Shown: positions 2,576-64,000 of the stretch, piece by piece
Position numbering within the stretch: the stretch's first letter is position 1
How the letters are laid out: every line of letters begins with the position of its first letter
Assembly: GCA_040765985.1 (NCBI GenBank)
Contig: JAXGRK010000001.1
Location: 8,513-72,512, forward strand
Source: Candidatus Dojkabacteria bacterium
GTDB taxonomy: Bacteria; Patescibacteriota; Dojkabacteria; SC72
DNA: 64,000 nt
Direction of reading: 5' to 3'
The notes under the pieces: model-generated
Databases searched by the model: none
What the model was told of the DNA's origin: nothing
Seen by the model: only the letters and a program-made list of their open reading frames with translations
Program-made: the position numbers and the translations under genes

Positions 2576-5133
2576 TTACTTTTTCCCAAGAATTATTTTC
2601 GATTCTTCTTCAGATACTAACCTTCTCATATCCTTAATAGTTTTTGGCATTACAGAGACTCCGTAAACACCCTTTCTAACACTGTATCTTACAAGTTCCG
2701 GACTGTCATCACAAAGGACAACAATCTCTTTGGAAGGGGATTTAGAAATATCACACACTGTATCTACTACTTTAAGAGAGTTACCAATTCCTAAATCATA
2801 CTTTCCTTTGGTATCATCAAACTTGTTTCCTTGCATTACTCTAATGATTCTAGGCATATCTATGATTAGTCCATCAATCTTCGAACCAAGTATCTCATCT
2901 GCGAGGATAATATCTGTTGGGTTATCAAGTATTGCATAGATTCTAAATGATGCAGTTCTTCTAAAACCACCTGCTAAAAGTGCCTTCTTGAAAAGATTCA
3001 TAGAAGATACATTCATTGGAGCATAGATACCGATATCCACATTTCTTCTTTTGTTAATATTTCTTACTCTAAGTAATATTTTAATAACTCTACTTAGTAA
3101 CTCTCTATTGGAAAGATAGTGGGCAAGACCATGTACAGAATCATCTATTTCCGAATTTTCAAATTGTTTTCCTTTAGTAAGTGATCTAAAACTAGATACT
3201 CTTAAAGACCCAAGAGCAAGTACTACTTGATTACCCTCGGCCAAATCAACATATTCACATATCTTGTCTCCAATCTGTTTGGAGTATTCTACAAACTTTT
3301 TCTCCTCAACATACGCAAGTAAATGCCTTCCATTCTCAAAAAGAATTTTATCTAAATCTACATAGACAAGTCCATGGGAATTTCCCACTAAATCAACAAT
3401 CGTTTCTTTCTCATCTTGTGGATTGATAAAGACCTTAGTAGCACATGGTGGCAAATTCATATCATGAGGAATCTTGTATTGTTCACCGGTATTTATTTCG
3501 GTTTCTTGAGTTTTCTCTTGTTCATTCTTAAGCAAATCAATTCCTGAAAGAGTTTCTTCTTTGTATGCTTGTATAACTGGATGAGTAGGGGACTGCTCTG
3601 TTTCTTTCTCAACATATATACTTCCCGTATTCCCATCTAACCTTACTAACTGGCCATTTTTAACATAGACGAGGCATTTACTGCACCAACAACGGCAGGG
3701 ATATCAAATTCTCTACACAATATTGCGATATCACTAGTTATACCTCCACTTTCTAATATTACACCCCAGAATTAATTGATTAGAGATTCCATATCTGAGA
3801 AGTACTCTTTTATTAACAGTATGTCCTTTTATTTATACCTTCCAAACTGCTTTTATTCACAACCTTAACACTTCCAACTACGACACCAAAACTTGCCCCA
3901 AGACCTTTGATTAGAAAATCATCAATATTACTTACCTGTTTATTTTCTTCCTCCTTTTCTTTTCTAATTGTACCTCTAGCAACACTAATCAACTTTTCAA
4001 TCAACGGACTATATTCATGTTTATTTCCTGAACAATTTTTTGTGCATTTTGTAGTGTCTTATCATCCAATCTCCCTATACCTTGGTATTTTTCTAAGCAC
4101 CATTTTAAAACCTCTCCAGAGTATCAAAGCTCTTGGCATTTCCTATGCTTTGGCTAAGTACATATCTTTCATACAAGTCTTTGCTCTGCAACACCCATAC
4201 CTTTCCTCCAGACATCACCCACTCAATATTCTGAGCTCGTCTTAATTTGTTTTCAACAATTAAAGATATTTTAGCTATTTCTCTTAGATATCCATCATCT
4301 ACTTTCTGACGATGACTCCATGCAGTAGATATTTTTACTTTCTCAGTACCATCTTTGTTGTTTTGATTCTTGTTAACAACTCTAATTTTCATCAATCCTG
4401 AGGCGAAATTTTTTTCTCTAATACAGATAAATCTCTTTTGTTCAAAAGATATGTATCAGGAGTTAGCTCTCTAAAGATATGGTATCCCTAACCCGAATAC
4501 TGCCTCTACACTCAATTTGGATTGATCCTGAGTGATAGGGTCAACAGTAAAAGCAACACCCGACACCTCTGCTTGAATCATCTTTTGTACAACAACTCCA
4601 AGTTTTACATCTGCCAGATTTATACCCTTAGAAGATGCGTAAGCAACATCATCTGTAAGCAAAGAGGCGTATATTCTTTTAACAGATTCCAGTAATTTTT
4701 TTCCTCCTCTTACATTTAACTCCGTAGAGAAAATCCCTGAGAAAGAAACTTCAGGATTAGAAGGAAATATTACAGATGATCGTACGGATACCCAGGCATC
4801 CGTAAATCCAGAAATTCTTGCATATGCAGACACAATATCTTCAATCTCCTCTATTTCAAATTCAGTTTTAAGTAATGATTTTAATACCTCGGATTGATCA
4901 GGATTATCCTCTTTTTCAAAAAGAGATTTGGCATCTCTAGAAAGAGTTCTTGAAATGAAGTTTTCAAAAACAGAAGACGAAATCACAAAGAAATCTGGTA
5001 TTGGAATATCCATATCCTTTAACTCAAAAAGCGAGAGACCCTTTCTTCCTATTGTAGACTCTTTTAATTTAGAGTAAACATGGTCCTCCCAGAAGTAAAC
5101 AGATCTTTTCTTTTGTGATGTAATATCAGACAT
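2576..5133 (-). CDS. PEP-utilising enzyme (phosphoenolpyruvate synthase / pyruvate,water dikinase-like); reading frame interrupted several times
   Basis: The domains are collinear but split across frames. 4471-5133 is the ATP-grasp PPDK_N-like N-terminus. 4105-4395 reads NIEWVMSGGKVWVLQSK. 3813-4004 reads GLGASFGVVVGSVKVV. An untracked segment at ~3660-3760 reads ESGGITSDIAILCREFDIPAVVGA (swivel domain). 2576-3535 is the PEP-utilizer TIM-barrel C-domain. Confidence 0.8.
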
Positions 5134-9275: not shown

Positions 9276-10304
9276 ATGCATACTAGAAAAGATATAAATG
9301 AGTTTACAACTGAATTAACTATGACTATTCCTCACGATAGTTTTAAACACTCATACGATTTAATGTTAAAAGATTACTCTAAGGATTTGGATATTAAAGG
9401 TTTTAGGAAAGGCAAAGTACTCTACAGATTTAGTTAGTGACCAAGTTAAAGAGATTGTTAAGTTTGAAACTTTTGAGAAACTAGCCCCTATGTATATAAA
9501 TACAGCAATATCAAAAGAAAAAATTAGAACAATTGCTCCCCCTATGTATAAAGAGATTCCTAAAATATTAGATGGCATAGATACATCCTTTACAATTACT
9601 GTTACAACAATGCCCAAATTTACATTGGGGAATATGAAAAAGGTGAAGGTAGAGAAAAAGAAAGAAGCTGTTTTAGAAAGTGAGATTGAAAGCGCTATAC
9701 AAGATTTAAAAACATCTCAGAAAACAAAACTAAAGAGATAAATGACCAATGGGCACAAGAGATAGGGAAAGTAATAGATGCAAAAGAAGTTAAGACATTA
9801 GACCAACTAAGAAAGAAGATTGAAAATGCCTACAGATTCAAAAAGACCACTATCAAATGCACAAGCTACAAGATGAAGCACTAAAAGCAATCCTTGAATC
9901 TAAGATTGAGATTCCTCAAGCGCTATAGATTTTGAAGCTCAAGAGAGAGAAAGATCCTTTAATGAAGATATGAAGAGCAAGGCAGTAAATATCGATGATT
10001 TTCTTAAGGCAAAATGAAATTACAATTGAAAAAATGAGAGAGCTATGGCAAGCAGATGCAAAAGAGGCAATTCAAACAGATGTGTTTCTCGCTATACGCA
10101 GATACTAAAAATGTTACAGTAACAGACGAAGAATTAGATAAAAAGGTTGAAGATATTAAAAAGCAAAGACCTGATGCAGATAAAAATATATTTAGTAACC
10201 CACAGTGGAAAGAATATATTAAAAAAGTAGAAGTGAAAGAGAAAGCATTTAGAATATTTATAGAGGAAGTACTAGGTAAAGATTTTTTAGATGAACATAA
10301 TTAA
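9276..10304 (+). CDS. tig: Trigger factor, interrupted by roughly four to five frameshifts or stops
   Basis: [19 protein letters not shown]...[10 protein letters not shown] is followed in another frame by [24 protein letters not shown], and later by the C-terminal fragment 10056-10304. It lies directly upstream of clpP, the conserved tig-clpP synteny. Confidence 0.8.
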
Positions 10305-14301: not shown

Positions 14302-14562
14302 TTGATTGCCAATATCTTCCTTATACCCGGCCTAGTTATTGCACTCGGATATCTTTTAAGACAAATCGGGGTATTAGATAAGATTCAAATTGTTAAAGAT
14401 TTCATCTCTAGTCCAATAGCTGACATTCTATTTGGGTTATCAATATTAAATGTGTTTGTACTTTGGCATGACTACTACAAAGACAAGAGTCATCCAGTTA
14501 GATTACCTAAGGCAGAAAAAATTTCTTTAAATGATCTTGAAGAGATTAAAAATAGGATTTAA
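14302..14562 (+). CDS. Small two-TM membrane ORF, possibly the N-terminal part of the following Clp ATPase
   Basis: MIANIFLIPGLVIALGYLL...ILFGLSILNVFVLW. It overlaps the next ORF start by 32 nt across an A5 run, so a frameshift fusion is possible. Confidence 0.35.
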   Translation: MIANIFLIPGLVIALGYLLRQIGVLDKIQIVKDFISSPIADILFGLSILNVFVLWHDYYKDKSHPVRLPKAEKISLNDLEEIKNRI

Positions 14563-16791
14563 ATTCGGAAGATATGCTCATTTAGAAGCTATCAATTTTG
14601 TAAATGAACAGACCTTAGACATCATCTGTAATAATACGAAAAACAAGGAGGTAGAGATATCTGATATCTTTATCGAATTACTCGCTTACCCCGAAATACA
14701 AGATATATTTCAAAGAGCAAACATCTCAATAAACGAGAATGTGTTTAAAGAAAACGGTGTAACAAAAATAACATTACCTAAATATTCATATACAGCAATA
14801 AGGAGCTTAGTAATATACTCTCAACGAAGCTCTTCTAACTTCTCTAGAGAGATTCAACCGAAACATCTTTTACTTGCACTTTTTAATGTGTTTCCCGTAT
14901 TAGAATTAGTTTTAACTTCTCAAAGCTCTTCAATTGATATTTTAAGAGAGATTGTTAGATATCAATCATATGAGCAGAATAAAAAGAAACGAACAAAATA
15001 TTTTAATCCCAATGTCGAATATTACAGAAAAGGTGGTATCGCTAAACAGTGGGTATATGGATATACATTCATACTAAATCATTTTGCTAAAAATATTAAC
15101 GAGATAGTATCTAGAGATAGGGATATATATGGTATTGGACATGAGGAGGAGATTGAATCTCTAGTATCTGTATTGGGTAAAGTCTCAAACAGGAATGCCC
15201 TTTTCATTGGTGAACCAGGCGTGGGTAAATCAAGTATAGTTCTAGGTATTGCTCAAAGGATTAACAGTGGGGACGTACCATTACAAATTAAAGATAAACG
15301 TATTTTACAATTAGATATAAACGGCTTAATTGCACATGCCTCTAATAATTCAAACTTGGAATATCTCATATCAAAAGCAATGAGAGAATTAGAAAATGCG
15401 GGAGATGTAATTCTTTACATTGATGAAATTCAAGAGTTAATTCCCTCAAAAGCAAGTGAAAGTGGCCACTCTCTTGCAGGAATACTTCTCCATACATATT
15501 AAACAGTAAGTTCCCAATTCTGGTACCGTAAACCACTCTGATTACAAAAAATATTTCTACAGTATGGAATCCTTAAGACAATCATTTACAAATATAGAGA
15601 TAAAAGAGATCTCTGCTTCAGATGCACTCCAAATACTTGAAACTAAAATATCTGAATTAGAAAAAAACTTCGGAATATATATTACCTTTCCTGCCCTAAT
15701 AAGTGCTGTAGAGTTAGCACAAAGGTACAACAAAGAAAAAGAAATTACCAAGTAGTGGAGTTATGCTAATTGAAGAGGCATGTTCTTGGGCTCAGGCCAG
15801 TGGGGTGACAATACTGACTGCAGAACATGTATCTAAGGTCCTCTCAAATCAGAAAGGCATCCCCATAGGAAATATTAATCCTCAACAGAGTACACATCTA
15901 ATGAAATTAGAGGAGAATATGAAGAAGAAAATTGTTGGACAAGAAGATGCAATACAAGCTTTGGTTGAGGCACTCAGAAGAGCCCAAGCAGATATTCGTA
16001 ATCCTAATAAACCAATAGGTGCGTTTCTTTTCATGGGTCCTACAGGTGTTGGTAAAACACATATATCCAAAGTCCTTGCAAAAGAGTATTTTGGTAATTC
16101 TACAGATATGATTAGAATTGATATGTCTGAATACAAGGAGATAAATAGTGTAGAGAAATTCTTAGGAGGAAGTAGTGATTCTAGTTTACTCGGCAAAGCA
16201 TCTATCTCCCTTATCGATAAAATTAAAAGTAATCCATATACTGTAGTCCTTTTTGATGAGATGGAGAAAGCTCACCCACAAATACTTGATCTTTTCTTAC
16301 AGCTATTCGACGAAGGGAGATTGACTAGTACTTTAGGAGAAACTGTTGATTTCACTCATAGCATTATCATTTGTACAAGCAATATTGGAAGTAGCATTTT
16401 ACTCAATCTCCTAAATGACCGAAATGTAACTTGGCAAGAGGCAAAAGATAGGGCATTGATTGAATTAAGACAGGCCATAAAACCAGAACTTCTTAATAGA
16501 TTTGATAAGGTATTAGTATTTCAACCACATAATATTGATAATCTATCTAAAATATCTCAACTTCTCTTGCAAGAATTAGCTCAAAGATTAACCGAAAAGA
16601 GTATAAAATTAACATGGGGAAATATAATACCACAATTAATTGCAAGTAAAGCAAACGAACCAGGTCTTGGTGCTAGACCAATAAAAAGATATATACAGGA
16701 CAACATAGAAGGGAATATTGCAAAAGAGATGATAGAAGGAAAAATAGCGTCTGGCCAAGAGATAGATATTAAAGAGGGATGGATAATATAA
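14531..16791 (+). CDS. Clp/Hsp100 family double-AAA+ ATPase (ClpA/ClpB-like), split into three ORFs by frameshifts
   Basis: D1 Walker A GEPGVGKSSIVLGIAQRI and Walker B ILYIDEIQEL. D2 IVGQEDAIQALVEALRRA, GPTGVGKTHISKVLA and VVLFDEMEKAHP. Frame breaks lie near 15500-15560 and 15755-15763. Confidence 0.85.
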
Positions 16792-21335: not shown

Positions 21336-24300
21336 TTAAGGTTTAAAACCTACTTCTGTTTTTTGTAATGTGTATGTATTACCAAAAAACTGTTCTGCTA
21401 ATATGCCGTATTTAGGATGATAGTCTATAACTAAGACAGGGAATCTTAATCTCTCTTCTAATCGAAGATATCTCAAGATTTGTATACTAGGATTTGTACT
21501 ACTGTCTAGAGACAGGAGCCCTCCATCCATATACAAACCGTCAATTATTTCTCCATAGTCTAATTCATCAGGAGAGAACAGATTTTCATTTCTAATATCA
21601 TCAAAGTAGAAGGATTCTCCTGGATTTATATTAATTATCCTAAATGCGTAATACAGTACTCTATCTAATAAATTATCCCTTATACCTGTAATATCTATTG
21701 ATACAGGAACCCATTCGTTTGCATTGGGAATTGTAACATTGAATGTTCTTTCTGAATAAGTACTTTCTCCGAATTGGAATTGAACGGATGCACCTGCCTG
21801 TGTTGATCTTATCCAAAATGTTATTAAATCATAATTAGACATATTTCGAGAGACAGATTTTTGAGTCCATACAACATCATCTAGTGAAGCAGGGATATCA
21901 TATCCACTTACAACATTATCAACGTAAAAAGTATTTGTAGAATCTGCATTTAATATTGTTATTATTAATTGTGATATTGAATCTTTGTTTACATTAGATA
22001 CCCCAGAGAGATCTAAAGTAACTCTTTGATATGTATTTGCAGATACCACATTAGGGATAATCTGTGTTACAGTTCCCCCTGAGTCTTTAATACCAATTGA
22101 GACATTACTTCCTGTTCTATTAGACCTCATATAGAAGGATAGGTATGTATTACCAGAGAGATTCAATGGAGTAGGGAAGGTTTTAACTGCAGTTTTATTT
22201 AATGATACTGTTTGGTCTGCAACAACCTTAAGAGCGTATGAGCCCTGTTGTACAATAGTTGGTTCATGATAGACCATTACACCACTACTTGTAGAATATC
22301 TAACGATAACGACACCAGAACCACCGTAACCACCTCTGACATTATATGACCCTGCATTACCACCACCTCCTCCTCCTGTATTTGCTGCTCCACTATATCT
22401 TGCATTTCCACCTCCACCTAAACCACCTAGGCCTCCTTTAGCAATATCCAAAGCACCACCACCACCTCCACCTCCATAATACTTTAGGGTTCCAGATATG
22501 GAGTTTGCAACACCAATACCTCCATCACCACCATTTCTCAAAGTTGTAGATAAATAATTTGCATTTTGACCACCTGCACCAGCTCCACCACCACCACCTC
22601 CTCCCCACCCCCTATACGCCCAGGTTGACCAGGTTGTCACACCATTTCCACCGCTGTTTCCTTGTCCAGCAACTCCAGCTCCACCACGACCGTAAGGGGT
22701 ACCATAGCCACCCGAGCCACCACCACCCGAGCCACCTAAATTTCCATTTTCCGATTCGATGGTAACAGCATGATCTCCACCAGCTCCTCCTCCTCTTGCC
22801 ACAAGAGTAGAAAAGGTAGAGTTTTGACCATTTGAAGCACCATCGTACGAATAGCTACGACCACCAGCTCCTACTGTAATATTTACATATGTTCCTGAAG
22901 ATACAGGAAAAGAAGGGTTGTAGATAACTCCTCCGGCACCACCACCACCACCACCACAGTCATTACCACCACCACCTCCTCCTCCACCAACAACCAATAC
23001 CTGCACATTCCCTCCCCTAGTAATAGTGAATCTTCCTCCGGAATTAAATGTGTGAACTACATCACTTCCTACATTTGTAACTATTCCACCAGTTGCAATA
23101 ACCCCCTCTCCAACTCCTGTATAATAGGCAGCTTGAGCCAATGCATCTGTTGAATACTCCATTAAATCTATAGTTTCAGATGAGCTAGTATAATTATCTG
23201 CAGCAGTAACTTTTATTGAACCTGTTTCTTCAGTATATAGGGATGGATTTAATTCTTGTGATAAAATTGTATTAACAGAATCCGTACTTTGCCATACAGT
23301 AACATCATCTGCATCATCAATAACATCAGGATCCCCTTGTGGTAATTTATTATCTTCATGCTCTATGAGTAATTTCTCCATCTGCTAATATATATGCATT
23401 CAACACGTCATAGAGAAGGAATTCTTACTAGATGCGTTGCTACCTTCAGAGATAATTACATCACCTTTTACTATGAATATACATCCAAGAGAATCATCTT
23501 GCTTTACTTGATGATTACGAACATCTGGACTGATTGTTAAATTTCCTTCAACAAATATTGCTGCTTTCCTATTACAAATGAAAGTCTCTTTAGAAGCGTT
23601 GACTGAAAGATTTCCCGGTACTTTCAATACACAGAATTCTTGATTTTGTCCTCCACAAGCTCCTGTACCATTTAAATTACTCTCAATTGTTGATGTAGCA
23701 GGACTTATTTCTATTAAACTAGACATTTTAGTTTTGTCCCTCTCGTAAGCCCTTAAGAAATTGTCATAGAAACTTGTTACTTTTGTTTGTGGATAGTTTT
23801 TAATATTGTAACTTTTAGTAAATGGGCTATTTACAAGAGAACTAGGTGAAGTAGAGGATTGTCCTTGTGCAAAGAGTTCACTTGAAAGATCAGCAAGATT
23901 GTAGAGTAGTGACCCTGAATCACCAATAGGTGGAAGAATACCTGCCCATCCAGGATCCTCTGTAAATGTTTTTGTTGAGAATGTAGACCCATCTAAAGAG
24001 TAGACCAAACCACCATCTGTTACTAACCAATCATTTATATCAAATATACTTTGATCATATTGTGGCATAGAGACATTACCTGCATCATCAAATGCTGTTA
24101 AGTAAAATATGAGTATTCCCTCTCTATTCTCTCCAATATTTATAGTAATACTTCCAGTATGAGATGCAGTACCCATATTCGGATCCACTCTAAATGCCCA
24201 ACCAGTATCTAAATTACCAATTACTCCACCCAGCGAAGTACTTAGAGTAGGGGAGAATGTTCCTCCCAAACCATATTTTAAAGTTACTCCAGAGGAAGCT

Positions 24301-40833: not shown

Positions 40834-41890
40834 TTATCTATCTGAGTAATACCTTACCCTCCTATATAAATCTAAAACTCTAACAAGCATATATTTAACT
40901 CTAGAGTAGGGGAAATCCATACATCTTTGATATCTTACTAGATAACCCCCAAAGCCCCTCTTAAAATTTGAATAACCATATCTTGGTGCTGTGGGCTTGT
41001 ATTTCTCATCAGGTAGTACATCCCAAGAATTAAAAATATTTAAATCCCTCTGCCTGTGCTTGTAAAATACATTCCCATCTAAGTAACATTGGTGCTCTTA
41101 ATTTACTTTCGATACCTGTTTGACAGCTATACAAGCAGGATACTTCATCTCCAAAAAGGACAGTACTAACATTGCAAGTGGTTGACCTTTGTATTCCGCT
41201 ATTGCTAAGCGTATCTCATTATCATTTCCCAAATATTCAAACTGTTTAATATAGTATTGTGAATTGTTAATAACAAAATCCTTTTATCTGAACTCTCCTG
41301 TAAATATTTTGTAAAGAGTTCCCACTCATTAACATCTTTAGAAAATCTTACTGTAACACCAGACCTTTTTGCTTTACGAATATATGTGGGATAGTTTTTT
41401 CCCATACCGTGTTCTAAACACCATTTCATTTGATCATCTTGGGTACCCTGAACTAAATCTAAAAACCAAGGCGTCTCTGGTTGAACATAGTTAATACATT
41501 TTTGAAAGCCTCCATACTTAGTGGTACCTCTGAAACAGAATTACTACTTTGTATGCTAGGATCTATCTTCAAAAAAAGATACTCTTTATCTTTAAAATAC
41601 TCCCTTAACTTGTTTAACACATCTTCGTACACAATTCTGCTTATCTCTTTTAATATTGGACCTCTTGAGCAGTATATATATTTCCCAAATGTTTGAGATA
41701 CTTCATAACAGTAGGCAGTAGCTATCAATTCATCTCCGTTGTAAAAGCCCAACCTATATGTTTTTCTTCCTAAACCACTTTCTTGATAAATACTCCAATT
41801 ATACGATTGCATAAAATTACAGTTAGGACTACGCTTAACAAAATCATCAAAAACCTTTTGTTTATCCAACTCTTTGATATCTAAATTCAT
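40834..41890 (-). CDS. FemAB-family peptidoglycan bridge aminoacyltransferase, fragmented
   Basis: ORF 41459-41890 reads NFMQSYNWSIYQESG...YCSRGPI (FemAB N-terminus). 41205-41429 and further fragments continue in other frames. The end coordinate is uncertain. Confidence 0.7.
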
Positions 41891-41936
41891 TCGTATATAT
41901 GATTAATTTAACTGTTTTTATGATAAAATCTAATAT

Positions 41937-42614
41937 ATGACATACCTTATTCTAGGAAATAATCAAGAAAATATAAAGGAGGAAGTAAAAAGATTGATTA
42001 GTAAGCTTTGGGAAAAGCAATTTGATTTTGATACTGCTTCAAACAACCCAGATATGCATATCCTCAAATCTAAAAATATTAAAAGTATAGGAATTCAAGA
42101 TGTTAAAGATTTACAAAATGAAATGATATTCTCTCCATATTTAGAAAAAGTACAAATAGCACTAATTCCCCAAGCCGAGAAATTAACCACTGAAGCACAA
42201 AACTCACTCCTAAAAGTTCTTGAAGATGGTTCCGATAGCAACGCATATATACTCACTACTAGTAGTGAAAAAGTATACTACCAACTGTTCTTTCTAGATC
42301 AATGAAAATATATTTAAAGGATGGAAAGATAGAAAGAGCAGAGTATACTTACCATACAATTCTACAAAAAACTCTACTTGAAGCATTTGTAGAGATAGAA
42401 AAGATCTCAAAAGACAAAGTAGAAAACTGAAGAATTTTTAAGAGATTTAGAATTTTACTACCAAGATATTTTGAAAGAGAATATTAAAGAGGGTAAGGGT
42501 ACACAATCTGTTTTATATTATATAAAACAGATTCTAAAAACAAGAGACAGAATTAGTGCAAATGGAAACAAAAGATTGTTACTTGAGAATCTTTTTCTTG
42601 TATTAACATCATAA
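41937..42614 (+). CDS. holB: DNA polymerase III delta-prime-like clamp-loader subunit, frameshifted
   Basis: PDMHILKS...IGIQDVKDLQNEM...AQNSLLKVLEDGSDSNAYILTTS. The frame is lost near 42290. The end is approximate. Confidence 0.6.
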
Positions 42615-60122: not shown

Positions 60123-61643
60123 ATGGATTTCAATGATCAAGGGGAGATAATCAACGGTTCGAATCCTAAATCCGCAAATTACACACCCGAAGAAGAAAAA
60201 GCAATAAATGAAAATAGGGCAAAAGTAGAATATGATGCAACTCACGGAACAGATCCCTCTGAGAGAGCCCATTTTAGAACCCAAGATAATACAAGATTCG
60301 CCAGTAGTACAGATGAGGGAGCTCGTCTTCATTTTACGAATGACCAAATAGAAAAAGTTAAAGCAGAGATGGATAAAGATTTGGGTCAAAAAATTAATAC
60401 CGAGAAAGAATCTATGATAACTGATCCAAAAGATAAACACATTCAAGAATTAACAAACCAAGTTGGCAATTTAACAAATCAAGTCGGCGACTTAACAAAA
60501 CAAATTAGTACTTTGACAACTCTAATGATAGAACAGAGTAAAATATATAACAAAACAGAAGATTTACAAAAAGCACTCGATCCAAATGAAAAAAAACCGA
60601 TAAATCCACTAGAGCAAGTTCAAGTAGCATTAATTCCAGAACAGATTAAAAAGCAAGAGGAATTTGCTAAAGCAGTAGAAGAAGAAAGAATAGCACATGA
60701 TCCAACCTATACCAAAACACCCGAGGCAGTACCTATTACCCCTCAAGAAACAGATCCAAATCGAGAAAGGAAGGAGAGAAACTTGAAAAGGGCAGCTCTA
60801 ATTGCCGGAGCTGTAGTAGGTGGAGCAACTGGTATCGCTGGAGGTGCTCCAACGGCTGGTATTGGAGTATTAGCATGTATGGGTGCTGGTATTTTAAACA
60901 AAGGTATTGAGTTAATCGGTTCAAGAAGAATAACTAAACTATCAGAATTAGCAAAAAATTCTACAAATCCTGATGAAAAAGCTAGATTAGAAAAAAAAAT
61001 ACAAAATTGGGAAAAAGTAAAAAAGGGTACGGAATACGCTAGAAGTTTCTTAATTGGAGCGAAAGTAGGATTGCTTGCTTCTGGCCTATTTAGTGGAATA
61101 TTTATGGACGGACACGGATTGGCTTGGAATACTGGTGAAGTACTTACACCAGGAATTACAGAGAATGTTGTACCTGACCAAAATATAAACCCAAATACCA
61201 GATTAGAAACTGGTGTAGAAACACCAGACAGTGTAACCAGTACATTCCCCTCAGAAAATATCGGCGTGGATTTAACTGATGCTAGCTCATATGCCGGAAA
61301 TTCATTTATTAAAGATGGGTATGTAAACTTAGAAGGCAGTAGCTGGCACATGAATAGAGCATTCCCAAATGTACAAGATATACTTCCTGGTGGAGAATTA
61401 AATCATAGTAATTACACTGGTGGAGTACACGAAATGGCTGCACATTTACTAGGCAAGGATCTTGCAACTTACCAAATTGATGATACGCTACTCTCAAATC
61501 TAACAACTTATGATAAACACAGATTGCTTAATGAATATCTAAGTAATATTCAATCAGGAAATACAAATCCTAAATTACTTGAAATTCTTCAAAATATGTC
61601 AACCGAAGGTGCTCAAAAAATATTAAGTACCTTAGGAAAATAA
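60123..61643 (+). CDS. Hypothetical membrane protein with glycine-zipper TM pair (506 aa)
   Basis: Intact ORF with coiled coil LTNQVGNLTNQVGDLTKQISTL, TMs AALIAGAVVGGATGIAGGAPTAGIGVLACMGAGIL and LIGAKVGLLASGLFSGIF, then a ~180-aa C-terminal domain. Confidence 0.6.
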   Translation: MDFNDQGEIINGSNPKSANYTPEEEKAINENRAKVEYDATHGTDPSERAHFRTQDNTRFASSTDEGARLHFTNDQIEKVKAEMDKDLGQKINTEKESMITDPKDKHIQELTNQVGNLTNQVGDLTKQISTLTTLMIEQSKIYNKTEDLQKALDPNEKKPINPLEQVQVALIPEQIKKQEEFAKAVEEERIAHDPTYTKTPEAVPITPQETDPNRERKERNLKRAALIAGAVVGGATGIAGGAPTAGIGVLACMGAGILNKGIELIGSRRITKLSELAKNSTNPDEKARLEKKIQNWEKVKKGTEYARSFLIGAKVGLLASGLFSGIFMDGHGLAWNTGEVLTPGITENVVPDQNINPNTRLETGVETPDSVTSTFPSENIGVDLTDASSYAGNSFIKDGYVNLEGSSWHMNRAFPNVQDILPGGELNHSNYTGGVHEMAAHLLGKDLATYQIDDTLLSNLTTYDKHRLLNEYLSNIQSGNTNPKLLEILQNMSTEGAQKILSTLGK

Positions 61644-61667
61644 CTTAAATTATTAACGAATTTTTAA

Positions 61668-62092
61668 ATGGACTTTTCAACTGAAATTGAGAATTTAAAG
61701 AATGAATTAAAATCTCTAGGATTTGATGAGAGAAAACACATCAATTATTAGACCTTGCAGCAGAGGAGTTAATTGAAGAGGCATTAGACTTACTTGTAGA
61801 AAATACCGACGATACAACACTTGAAACGATATCTCAAGAGATGGAAAAGCCAATTACAACACCCCAAGAAGCCCAAGCTAAACTTACTATGATATTAGAA
61901 AAAGCGTATGGTACAGAGGCAGAGAATAAAAAGGGAGAGTTTATTGTTAATTACCTTAGAACAACTGTTGAAGATACAAAGAAAGCTAAAGATCTATATG
62001 ATAGATACCAATCAGGAGACCCAAGTGCGGTAGCTGCTATAAAAGCACAAGAAGGAGATTCTGACGCCCAGGAGATAATGGATAGAATGTAA
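61668..62092 (+). CDS. Hypothetical protein, one frameshift
   Basis: ATG at 61668 gives MDFSTEIENLKNELKSLGFDE and shifts in an A4 run (~61735) into the frame of ORF 61841-62092. Confidence 0.4.
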
Positions 62093-62096
62093 TCTT

Positions 62097-63515
62097 TTAC
62101 TTCAACGGATGATTCTTTTTAACAGTCTCTTCTGCAAACTTTTCACTTGCATGAACATACTTTGTTGTTGTATTTAAACTCTCATGACCAAGTAATATCT
62201 GCAGTGCTACAGCACTAGCCCCATCCTCTGCCATATATGTAGCAAAACCATGTCTTAAACTGTGTGCAGATGTAGGTATCTGTATACCTAATCTCTTTCT
62301 GTAATCTGCTATTTTTTCTTGGAAATAGTTAGTAGATAACCTGCAATTAGGTTTTTTACTTCTAATACCTACAAAGGGAACGAATAGGGCAGGGGAGTTG
62401 AATTTCTCTAAAAATTTATTCATCCTATACTCCTCAATCAATCTAATATATTTCCTATTCTCAGAATCAAAAACTTCTAAATTTAATCCTTCAGAATTCA
62501 TATCTCCCGGCAATGTTTCACGGTGTTTCATGTTTTTGTCCTTAACTCCAATATCTATAAACAACTTATCTACATTTCCCGGTTGTTCCTCTTTCTCCCT
62601 ATCTGAAAACGCATACTCTAATCTCAATTTCAAATATTTATTTAACCATCCCAAAGCCCTGTTTGTCATATATACAGCTCTCTCTTTTTTACCCTTTCCC
62701 ATTACATATATTTTACCCTCAACATTTAACTGTTCTATATTCATATTTATCAACTCTGATATCCTCATACCTGTTGCAAAAAGCATCTCTAACATGCACC
62801 TGTTTCTTAGCGCTACACGCTCATCTTTCTCAAACTCCATAGGTGCTTCTATCAATCTCGTCAAATCTTCTAAAGATGCAACCTTCTTAACTTTCTTTTC
62901 TCCTCTAACCATCTGAATTCCATCTGGAGGAATTGGAATATCATAATCAAAATCAATTCTAAACTTTAAATACGATCTAATTGCAGACAACATTCGATTT
63001 ATACTTCTAACATCTAAACCGTTTTTACTTCTGGATCTAGAATTAAGAGGCCTCTCTAAAATCCCCAACGAACCGTATACCTTACCGTAGACTTTTGTAA
63101 GAAAGTCCTCCTCATATACCTGTGGAGAACCCTCTGTACTAGTTTCATCATTTTCATCTTCATCCACAGGTCTATTCATACCACTTAAATTTTTTGATGC
63201 CCTTGCCGGGCCTCTAAGCGCTTTGACATCTGTTTGTATTGTCTTAAAGCCCTTTTCTACACATTTCTCCCTAATTCTATCCAAATCTTTCAAATGATTA
63301 CCACTCCCTAGATACCCTTTGTAATTTAATACATCTATCTTCGTTAACTTCTCAAACTTTATATTATTAAAATGTAAATATACACTAAATATGGAGAGAT
63401 CCCTGGCGTAACTAATAATGGTTTGAAAGCTGTACGCATTGTTTTGTAAATTTAAAAAATACATATCCTGATCAGGAAGTTTGGGGATATCATTTAATAG
63501 GAATGTTTTCTTCAT
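62097..63515 (-). CDS. Tyrosine recombinase, XerC/XerD-like, atypically long (472 aa) with two insertions
   Basis: N-terminal SAM-like core-binding domain (YSFQTIISYARDLSIFSVYL). Catalytic residues in ATGMRISEL, HSLRHGFAT and LLGHESLNTTTKYVH (R..HxxR..H..Y). Confidence 0.9.
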   Translation of the reverse strand: MKKTFLLNDIPKLPDQDMYFLNLQNNAYSFQTIISYARDLSIFSVYLHFNNIKFEKLTKIDVLNYKGYLGSGNHLKDLDRIREKCVEKGFKTIQTDVKALRGPARASKNLSGMNRPVDEDENDETSTEGSPQVYEEDFLTKVYGKVYGSLGILERPLNSRSRSKNGLDVRSINRMLSAIRSYLKFRIDFDYDIPIPPDGIQMVRGEKKVKKVASLEDLTRLIEAPMEFEKDERVALRNRCMLEMLFATGMRISELINMNIEQLNVEGKIYVMGKGKKERAVYMTNRALGWLNKYLKLRLEYAFSDREKEEQPGNVDKLFIDIGVKDKNMKHRETLPGDMNSEGLNLEVFDSENRKYIRLIEEYRMNKFLEKFNSPALFVPFVGIRSKKPNCRLSTNYFQEKIADYRKRLGIQIPTSAHSLRHGFATYMAEDGASAVALQILLGHESLNTTTKYVHASEKFAEETVKKNHPLK

Positions 63516-63544
63516 ATGTATATATTAACTTTTTAAAAAATAAA

Positions 63545-63558
63545 ATCAAAGTAGGGGA
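63545..63558. repeat. Left arm of the 14-bp inverted repeat next to the recombinase gene
   Basis: atcaaagtagggga at 63545-63558. Its exact reverse complement tcccctactttgat lies at 63955-63968. Confidence 0.8.
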
Positions 63559-63954
63559 CTTTTTTTAGTTTTCCCATAGATAAAAGAAATATAGGGGATA
63601 TGAATAATTTAAATAGGAATATAAAAGAAAAAATATTTTTTATTTTTATATATTTTTATCATTAAGTATTTAATATAAAACCTTAGCTACAAGTACTTCT
63701 CTGGGTCATACAGATATGTGACCGCATATAAGGATGATTATACTCGGTTATATGATATAAGAAATCATAACATATTGCAACATAGGGGATAGCACTCTAC
63801 CATAAGAGACATCGTTAGAATTACTTCGGTATAGATCCTCTCCTATTTAAATATTTATTCTCTTTATAATAAAATGTATTAGCACTTGGTTATCCACATT
63901 GATATTACTATAGGACCTGTGAAACTATGGGCTACTACTTGCTATAAGCCCTAC

Positions 63955-63968
63955 TCCCCTACTTTGAT
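63955..63968. repeat. Right arm of the 14-bp inverted repeat
   Basis: tcccctactttgat. It is preceded by ccctactc, the only minus-strand GAGTAGGG in the window. Confidence 0.8.
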
Positions 63969-64000
63969 ATTTCTATACTAAAATATTCAAAAAGAAATTT

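Follow-up and report, generated by a model that had tools for sequence, protein, structure and literature searches.

A 28-bp dif-like site, a long Xer-type recombinase and a converging polar octamer at a probable chromosome-dimer-resolution locus of Dojkabacteria

Resolution of chromosome dimers has been characterised for the XerCD, XerS and XerH systems and for archaeal XerA, and a survey of dif sites published in 2011 covered 16 phyla (PMC3025954). In the single-recombinase systems XerS and XerH, dif and the recombinase gene are neighbours, which has been described as a possible hallmark of such systems (PMC5357621). The polar motifs known as FtsK-orienting polar sequences (KOPS; GGGNAGGG in Escherichia coli) and SpoIIIE recognition sequences (SRS; the GAGNAGGG family in Bacillus subtilis) have been defined (PMC3384302), and such motifs have been described as running from origin to terminus (PMC2680272). 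Literature searches returned no description of Xer/dif or of KOPS in the Candidate Phyla Radiation (CPR). The present analysis concerns a 64,000-nucleotide stretch of low-GC DNA (∼32% GC) from Candidatus Dojkabacteria (WS6, CPR; contig JAXGRK010000001.1, positions 8,513 to 72,512), hereafter the window, in which a Xer-like tyrosine recombinase gene adjoins ∼400 bp of non-coding DNA. A preliminary description of the window had proposed this interval as a candidate dif site and replication terminus. Comparison with related species places a conserved 28-bp dif-like core within the interval and makes a role in chromosome dimer resolution probable; its assignment as a replication terminus is doubtful.

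Relatives were collected by scanning one genome per species with the recombinase, which yielded 80 loci of ∼20 kb each (∼10 kb on either side of the site), and ∼75 intergenic regions were compared. Two additional loci, L087 and L088, reach ∼19 kb on the flank that lies beyond the window (the far side). Locus L002, whose recombinase is 98% identical to that of the window and in which the last 40 nucleotides of the window were matched exactly, served as a stand-in for the DNA to the right of position 64000.

Alignment of 75 intergenic regions revealed one sharply conserved island, located at 63721-63748 on the minus strand and reading ACCGAGTATAA/TCATCC/TTATATGCGGT in an 11 + 6 + 11 arrangement. 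Its consensus is TAACCGAGTATAA-N6-CTTATATGCGGTC, and conservation drops at once outside these limits. The arms are nearly invariant and correspond to each other as an inverted repeat at 9 of 11 positions, positions 2 and 27 of the core co-varying from C..G to T..A. The 6-bp centre occurs in 16 variants, with changes mostly at its positions 2-4. With up to 4 mismatches permitted over the 22 arm positions, the core was found in 73 of the 75 regions and in one orientation relative to the recombinase gene throughout; a single copy is present in the 64-kb window, ∼205 bp upstream of the recombinase start codon, and a single copy per 20-kb locus. This organization is that of a generic dif site, which comprises ∼28 bp with imperfect inverted arms of ∼11 bp and a centre of 6-8 bp. 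The core and the dif site of Pyrococcus abyssi have TATAA-N6-TTATAT in common and are identical at 17 of 28 positions by hand count (dif sequence from PMC2958812).

The conserved core next to the gene supports the earlier suggestion that a dif-like site lies directly beside the recombinase, as in single-recombinase systems. Two imperfect palindromes that had been offered as candidate core sites are indeed present, at 63703-63724 and 63751-63769, but neither is the conserved core, which lies between them and overlaps the first by 4 bp. The first palindrome, GGTCATA-N6-TGTGACC, is a hairpin that abuts the core and shows a compensatory double change in L002 (GGTCGTA...TACGACC, ∼9790-9815); it is lineage-specific, more distant species being without it. 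The second, TATGAT-N7-ATCATA, sits in merely moderately conserved AT-rich DNA and forms part of a spacer (63749-63877) of which the length is conserved and the sequence poorly conserved.

The gene at 62097-63515 (minus strand) encodes a protein of 472 aa, and its identification as a Xer-like tyrosine recombinase was confirmed by a Pfam Phage_integrase match (9.5e-33) accompanied by an N-terminal SAM-like domain. Among the NCBIfam models, the best family was XerD (TIGR02225, 174.2 bits, below its cut-off of 329.6), followed by XerC (TIGR02224, 166.9 bits, cut-off 335.15), XerA (NF040815, 137.8 bits, cut-off 220) and XerS (NF003462, 89.3 bits, cut-off 267). Relative to XerD, which has about 300 aa, the protein contains two insertions, at approximately residues 87-160 and 297-392, and these split the matches to both the XerD and the XerC models. 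The closest relative in the PDB is E. coli XerD (1a0p, 5e-24), and the XerH structure gives a weak match (9e-12). Residues R251, K274, H418, R421, H444 and Y453, assigned as the catalytic set, do not vary among 46 homologues, and the protein exhibits the R-K-H-R-H/W-Y set and the two-domain layout that are generic to Xer recombinases. The AlphaFold model is of low confidence (predicted local distance difference test score 59, predicted template modelling score 0.41); both insertions are unstructured or uncertain in it, and no separate arm-binding domain is apparent.

Full-length homologues with 48-98% identity and lengths of 445-476 aa occur across Dojkabacteria, and the named homologues carry the labels Dojkabacteria or Patescibacteria. 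The gene belongs to a class-wide block that consists of an rluD-like gene, a LytR_C gene, a gene for a VirD4/TrwB-like ATPase, yebC, ruvC, ruvA, ruvB, a gene for a 275-aa protein, the site and xer, all co-oriented. The order ruvC-ruvA-ruvB-275-aa gene-site-xer is fixed in 59-66 loci, and on account of this conserved synteny the recombinase gene appears housekeeping-like rather than mobile-element-like. A tyrosine recombinase and its neighbouring site might otherwise be ascribed to a mobile or integron-like element, as its integrase and attachment site, the more so as the flank on the recombinase side varies in gene content and weak integron-integrase matches were obtained (65 bits against a cut-off of 265). 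That reading is highly unlikely given the class-wide occurrence of both gene and site in fixed synteny to ruvCAB on one side, XerD and XerC as the best-scoring families, the absence of a second core or of bounding direct repeats within 10 kb, and the convergence of a chromosome-scale motif polarity at this point, as follows.

The window contains 17 copies of the octamer GAGTAGGG, where 1.14 would be expected, a number not attained in any of 100 shuffles. In agreement with the preliminary description, all 16 copies upstream of the interval (1968 to 59809, ∼1 per 3.9 kb) point rightward on the plus strand, every one of them directed at the core; the remaining copy, at 63949-63956, is on the minus strand. 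Given that the plus-strand copies are found in genes of both orientations (3 in plus-strand open reading frames (ORFs), 6 in minus-strand ORFs and 7 outside ORFs) and that their flanks are unrelated, the polarity is not a coding artefact. Among the 7-mers of the window, GAGTAGG has the strongest strand bias (22:1).

Within the window, the change of polarity had rested on few copies. The 9.5 kb that follow the window end in L002 carry GAGTAGGG solely on the strand equivalent to the minus strand of the window, and the convergence on ∼400 bp of non-coding DNA that had been proposed is borne out class-wide. When the recombinase gene was set to plus in ∼75 species, 59 plus and 1 minus copies were counted more than 520 bp upstream of its start codon, and 0 plus and 53 minus copies downstream of it. 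In 53 loci a far-side plus copy precedes the start codon by 398-511 bp, in 32 loci a minus copy lies inside the 88 bp directly upstream of it, and the stretch between these two bracketing arms is free of copies in ∼75 loci. In L087 and L088, followed to ∼19 kb, GAGTAGGG and RRGTAGGG variants outside the bracket occur solely on the core-pointing strand. The distances from the core are narrowly distributed: the recombinase-side motif, found in 57 species, is 119-171 bp away (median 156, interquartile range 151-163), and the far-side motif, a doublet in 43 of 73 species, ends a median of 207 bp away (interquartile range 200-210). Like KOPS and SRS, the octamer is therefore a G-rich 7-8-mer that is present in excess, is confined almost entirely to one strand and changes strand at a dif-like site. 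Guide motifs of this kind are recognised by the gamma domain of an FtsK-family translocase.

Some further words were noted in the course of these counts. Locus L053 holds the sole wrongly oriented copy of the motif among the loci. Additional G-rich words flip at the site, namely AGGGCAGG (26:0 and 2:56) and GCAGGGGA (18:0 and 0:82) in ∼75 loci, some of which may represent forms of the guide motif particular to a species and others conserved coding sequence. The only other strongly skewed 8-mers of the window are CCACCACC-type repeats (14:0 on the plus strand), which stem from a gene for a glycine-rich protein (Gly_rich_2; 21336-23381, minus strand) and are a coding repeat, not a polar signal.

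The bracket is visible in the window as an inverted repeat. Its recombinase-side arm (63542-63558, plus strand), ∼30 nt upstream of the recombinase start codon, contains the variant AAGTAGGGG facing right at 63549-63557. The far-side arm (63949-63971, minus strand) contains AAGTAGGG-GAGTAGGG in tandem facing left, with AAGTAGGGG at 63956-63964. The segments 63542-63558 and 63955-63971 are 94% complementary over 17 nt and 396 nt apart, so that the 14-bp inverted repeat reported previously is real and somewhat longer than had been thought. It is not a separate element: because convergence of the motif is seen across species throughout the class, the repeat represents the two facing copies of a genome-wide polar motif that lie closest to the core.

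An inverted repeat around 396 bp directly beside a tyrosine recombinase gene is also what would be expected of a fimS-type invertible switch, in which the adjacent recombinase would invert the ∼400 bp between the repeats and so toggle a promoter, and weak matches to NCBIfam tyrosine-type DNA invertases were obtained (∼31 bits against a cut-off of ∼221). The orientation of the interior is identical in 73 of 73 core-bearing species assemblies, the recombinase-type core is located mid-interval and not at the repeats, and the arms are copies of the genome-wide motif that have in common across species just (A)GAGTAGGGG, ∼10 bp. A switch of this type is therefore extremely improbable.

Taken together, the sequence data indicate that the interval is probably the chromosome-dimer-resolution locus of Dojkabacteria, comprising a single long Xer recombinase, a 28-bp dif-like core and a converging KOPS-like motif. 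By this scheme, two recombinase protomers would occupy the two near-identical 11-bp arms, two sister sites would synapse as a tetramer, and the strands would be cleaved and swapped where the arms meet the 6-bp centre, which would convert a chromosome dimer to monomers. GAGTAGGG would direct a septal FtsK-type translocase toward dif; such a translocase is postulated here and was not found in the sequence covered. Recombination activity of the protein on the core is thus a prediction, as is the involvement of just one recombinase.

Beyond the AT-rich spacer, two more sets of conserved sequences accompany the core. An island at 63878-63898 (minus strand) has the form TGTGGATAA(C)-N5-TGCTAAT. Within it, a perfect DnaA-box 9-mer reads TTATCCACA on the plus strand at 63890-63898 and is the sole perfect copy in the 64-kb window; an extended -10-like TGCTAAT follows at 63878-63884. 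An exact copy of TGTGGATAA is present in 68 of 75 species, its median position being -153 relative to the core. Farther out, direct repeats of CCYATAG(T) with a spacing of 17 bp are present in two to three copies on the minus strand (63908-63914, 63925-63931 and, in degenerate form, 63942-63948), and in nearly all species they are found at approximately -183, -166 and sometimes -200 from the core. From these sequences we infer that the CCYATAG repeats and the DnaA box make up an accessory protein-binding element; no ArgR- or PepA-type sites were recognised in the intergenic region.

The same sequences raise the question of whether the interval is instead a regulatory region or a non-coding RNA gene, with the palindrome as an operator or RNA hairpin and another cause for the motif switch. 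The interval exceeds the length usual for a dif site, and it contains the extra conserved CCYATAG, TGTGGATAA and extended -10-like TGCTAAT elements; the core may fold as a hairpin, the co-variation of its positions 2 and 27 would also fit RNA, and the neighbouring hairpin carries its compensatory change in L002. In the intergenic region, neither Rfam searches (at gathering and permissive thresholds) nor ARAGORN detected an RNA family, tRNA or tmRNA. RNAalifold applied to 22 species gave no conserved structure beyond the core palindrome and one small hairpin, with a structure conservation index of 0.2-0.28 in the left module and in the core flank, falling to zero in AT-rich stretches. Given in addition that the 11 + 6 + 11 layout, the TATAA/TTATA inner arms, the Xer gene and the KOPS-like convergence have the appearance of a dif site, an exclusively regulatory or RNA function is unlikely, although part of the extra conserved DNA may be regulatory. 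A promoter scan returned hits no more numerous than in shuffles.

The remaining question concerns replication. In the window, genes on the minus strand have higher GC skew and lower AT skew at third codon positions (GC3 and AT3) than those on the plus strand (Mann-Whitney p = 0.0017 and 2e-5, respectively). GC skew at fourfold sites is -0.32 for plus genes and -0.01 for minus genes, and that of the intergenic plus strand is -0.125. Because genes and intergenic DNA agree, the G/T-richness of the minus strand extends over all 62 kb and exceeds what coding accounts for. Past the site, 98% of the coding DNA is on the same physical strand and reads toward the site, and this strand is again G/T-rich; raw GC skew is still negative across the 9.5 kb past 64000 in L002. 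The sign of the AT3 asymmetry is the same in 22 of the 23 species that have both gene orientations on the recombinase side, and that of the GC3 asymmetry in 17 of 23. No skew extremum was found between -62 kb and +9.5 kb of the site, which locally contradicts the replication terminus put forward in the preliminary description. The composition polarity thus crosses the site unflipped while the motif flips, so that in the body of the window the motif lies on the lagging-like, C/A-rich strand. The far-side copies occupy the gene-rich strand, which is rich in G and T, and the leading-strand placement of KOPS and SRS is accordingly not reproduced over the range as a whole. An inversion does not explain the mismatch, as it would flip motif and composition together.

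The composition of the window body fits forks that depart from the site in that direction, which brings in the possibility that the DnaA box and the AT-rich stretch of conserved length mark an origin (oriC), with the motif pointing to it. The perfect TTATCCACA in 68 of 75 species adjoins ∼120 bp of AT-rich DNA, gyrB and gyrA are 16-21 kb away, and dnaB is ∼11-18 kb away on the opposite, conserved flank. An oriC comprises a cluster of DnaA boxes and a DNA-unwinding element, mostly close to dnaA, with polar motifs and skew diverging from it. Here there is one DnaA box per region and therefore no oriC-type cluster, and a search with an approximate query detected no dnaA over 62 kb in one direction and none over 10 kb in the other across ∼75 species. 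The Pfam gene lists of L087 and L088 to 19 kb likewise contain no dnaA, and these loci show no DnaA-box cluster and no reversal of motif or composition. All of the far-side coding DNA on the G/T-rich strand (the 98% running toward the site) would be head-on to departing forks. We know of no role for a dif-type core and a Xer gene at an origin. The motifs, moreover, converge here, whereas KOPS and SRS motifs have been described as running from origin to terminus (PMC2680272). The likelihood that the interval is an origin is accordingly minimal.

Several observations weigh against the interpretation as a dimer-resolution locus. A single polarity is maintained from 62 kb on one side of the site to 19 kb on the other by the GC and AT skews at fourfold sites, by the skew of intergenic DNA and by the orientation of genes, and in 641 surveyed organisms dif was within 3% of genome size of the skew shift-point (PMC3025954); the 62 kb amount to ∼9% of a ∼0.7-Mb genome. 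The recombinase scores under the curated cut-offs of every named Xer family tested, and the position of the XerD "RQx" motif (defined in PMC2958812) reads TNY, "MTRQTFW" being aligned to "LSTNYFQ" in the alignment with 1a0p. No FtsK homologue was detected with an approximate E. coli query in the window or in 86 loci, although this negative says little since the search covers just ∼20 kb per genome. A second Xer or a canonical dif may exist elsewhere in the genome, uniqueness of the core having been established over the window and the 20-kb loci. The cross-species motif counts are not independent, part of the copies being orthologous. Finally, L049, L053 and L075 have no core within 10 kb; in these loci the site may be placed elsewhere, or the gene may be a paralogue. 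The recombinases of L049 and L053 are 58-59% identical over their full length, and both loci are also without the DnaA-box 9-mer. In L075 the recombinase match is limited to residues 134-472 (66% identity).

With respect to the terminus, the local evidence is against the site or does not allow it to be demonstrated as such, and the status of the site as a replication terminus is doubtful. The unbroken composition suggests that replication runs through the site. A tentative proposal, which we consider possible though less than probable, is that in Dojkabacteria the junction of dif and guide motif has been uncoupled from the junction of strand bias. Forks would then cross dif and meet at least 62 kb away (at least ∼9% of a genome of 0.65-0.75 Mb), and the motif would be kept on the lagging strand against mutational bias. 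In an extreme form of this proposal, asymmetric or unidirectional replication may be tied to the module of DnaA box and AT-rich DNA beside dif.

The surroundings of the locus include several other features. Besides gyrB and gyrA, the gene content of the window comprises clpP, type IV pilus genes and one tRNA-Val. On the far side, the gene for the conserved 275-aa protein (8715-9542 in L002, with orthologues) ends just before the far-side arm in 66 loci, and the protein has no Pfam or NCBIfam match. The VirD4/TraD/TrwB/HerA-like ATPase has 823 aa (DUF8128 + DUF87 + TrwB_AAD_bind; 3275-5746 in L002), is found in 48 loci with ∼75% identity and is of the DNA-translocase type. It is always 4.7-10 kb from the site and co-oriented with yebC and ruvCAB. 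Its identification as FtsK was considered and rejected, as it is VirD4/TraD/TrwB-like and has no similarity to an approximate query of the E. coli FtsK C-terminus. The dnaB gene is at 242-1558 in L087 and at 6577-7893 in L088; in L088, rpmE, prfA and prmC (region 1063-2532) are situated just past dnaB on the other strand, and GAGTAGGG and G-richness keep their strand there, with no origin-like switch.

A number of window genes are seemingly shortened or split in comparison with relatives or Pfam models, which assembly indels or true gene decay may explain. Next to the recombinase, at 60123-62092, ORFs of 83 and 506 aa correspond to 137 and 831 aa in L002 (11424-14359). Other shortened pieces are a 220-aa PPDK_N fragment, a 122-aa holB-like ORF, a 143-aa FemAB ORF and a Clp ATPase spread over two ORFs, and the further regions concerned are 4471-5133, 14531-16791 and 41459-42305.

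The locus offers a class-wide testable system whose components are a defined site of 28 bp, one long Xer bearing two insertions specific to the lineage, a guide octamer and an unexpected accessory module at fixed distances. A unique dif site and a two-arm motif map would be usable for assembly checks of metagenome-derived CPR genomes. The conflict between motif and composition polarity is potentially important: if the mismatch is genome-wide, it will be relevant to the long-standing question of whether dif is where replication ends, and of whether replication or segregation sets the polarity of KOPS. Should the proposed uncoupling be true, Dojkabacteria would be the first bacterial lineage in which segregation and replication polarity are centred on different points.

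Comparison with described systems reveals partial likeness to each. With XerCD/dif-FtsK-KOPS of E. coli and SpoIIIE/SRS of B. subtilis, the Dojkabacteria locus shares XerD and XerC as best relatives and a polar G-rich octamer converging on dif; GAGTAGGG falls in the GAGNAGGG family of SRS and is one position off the KOPS GGGNAGGG. The motif is about three times denser, at 1 per 3.9 kb as opposed to 1 per 10-13 kb for KOPS and SRS. In contrast to XerCD, which employs two paralogues and distinct arms, Dojkabacteria apparently use one recombinase and near-identical arms; the "RQx" position also differs, and the composition switch is not at the site over the range examined.

The arrangement of a small core within a few hundred bp that bear protein-binding-like repeats at fixed distances is reminiscent of cer, psi and lambda-type attP. 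The accessory sequence of cer and psi is ∼180 bp long. The accessory proteins of cer and psi are ArgR and PepA (PMC5357621), sites for which were not recognised at the Dojkabacteria locus, and cer, psi and attP are plasmid or phage sites.

The systems XerS/difSL of Streptococcus and Lactococcus and XerH/difH of Helicobacter and Campylobacter likewise have one recombinase that is longer than XerC or XerD and adjoins its site (PMC5357621). They also resemble the present locus in their near-symmetric, slightly asymmetric arms and in a converging guide motif (KOPS in Lactococcus lactis, PMC3384302). The Dojkabacteria protein differs in its length (472 aa compared with 354-362 aa) and in its poor agreement with the XerS model (89 against 267 bits) and the XerH structure (9e-12). 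Its core of 28 bp with a 6-bp centre contrasts with the 31 bp and 11-bp centre of difSL, and its arms are dissimilar to AGTTATGAAAA of difH. The accessory module and the motif brackets at fixed distances are features of the Dojkabacteria locus that are undescribed for XerS and XerH systems.

As regards the site itself, the archaeal XerA/dif system of P. abyssi is also similar, with a single recombinase and a 28-bp site made up of 11-bp near-perfect inverted arms and a 6-bp spacer in AT-rich flanks (PMC2958812). The inner arms of the P. abyssi site, ATTGGATATAA-TCGGCC-TTATATCTAAA, are of the same type as those of ACCGAGTATAA-TCATCC-TTATATGCGGT, although the Dojkabacteria protein reaches 138 bits with the XerA model against a cut-off of 220. 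In Thermococcales, dif lies away from xerA and XerA works without FtsK (PMC5357621, PMC2958812), whereas in Dojkabacteria the site adjoins the recombinase gene and a KOPS-like motif converges on it.

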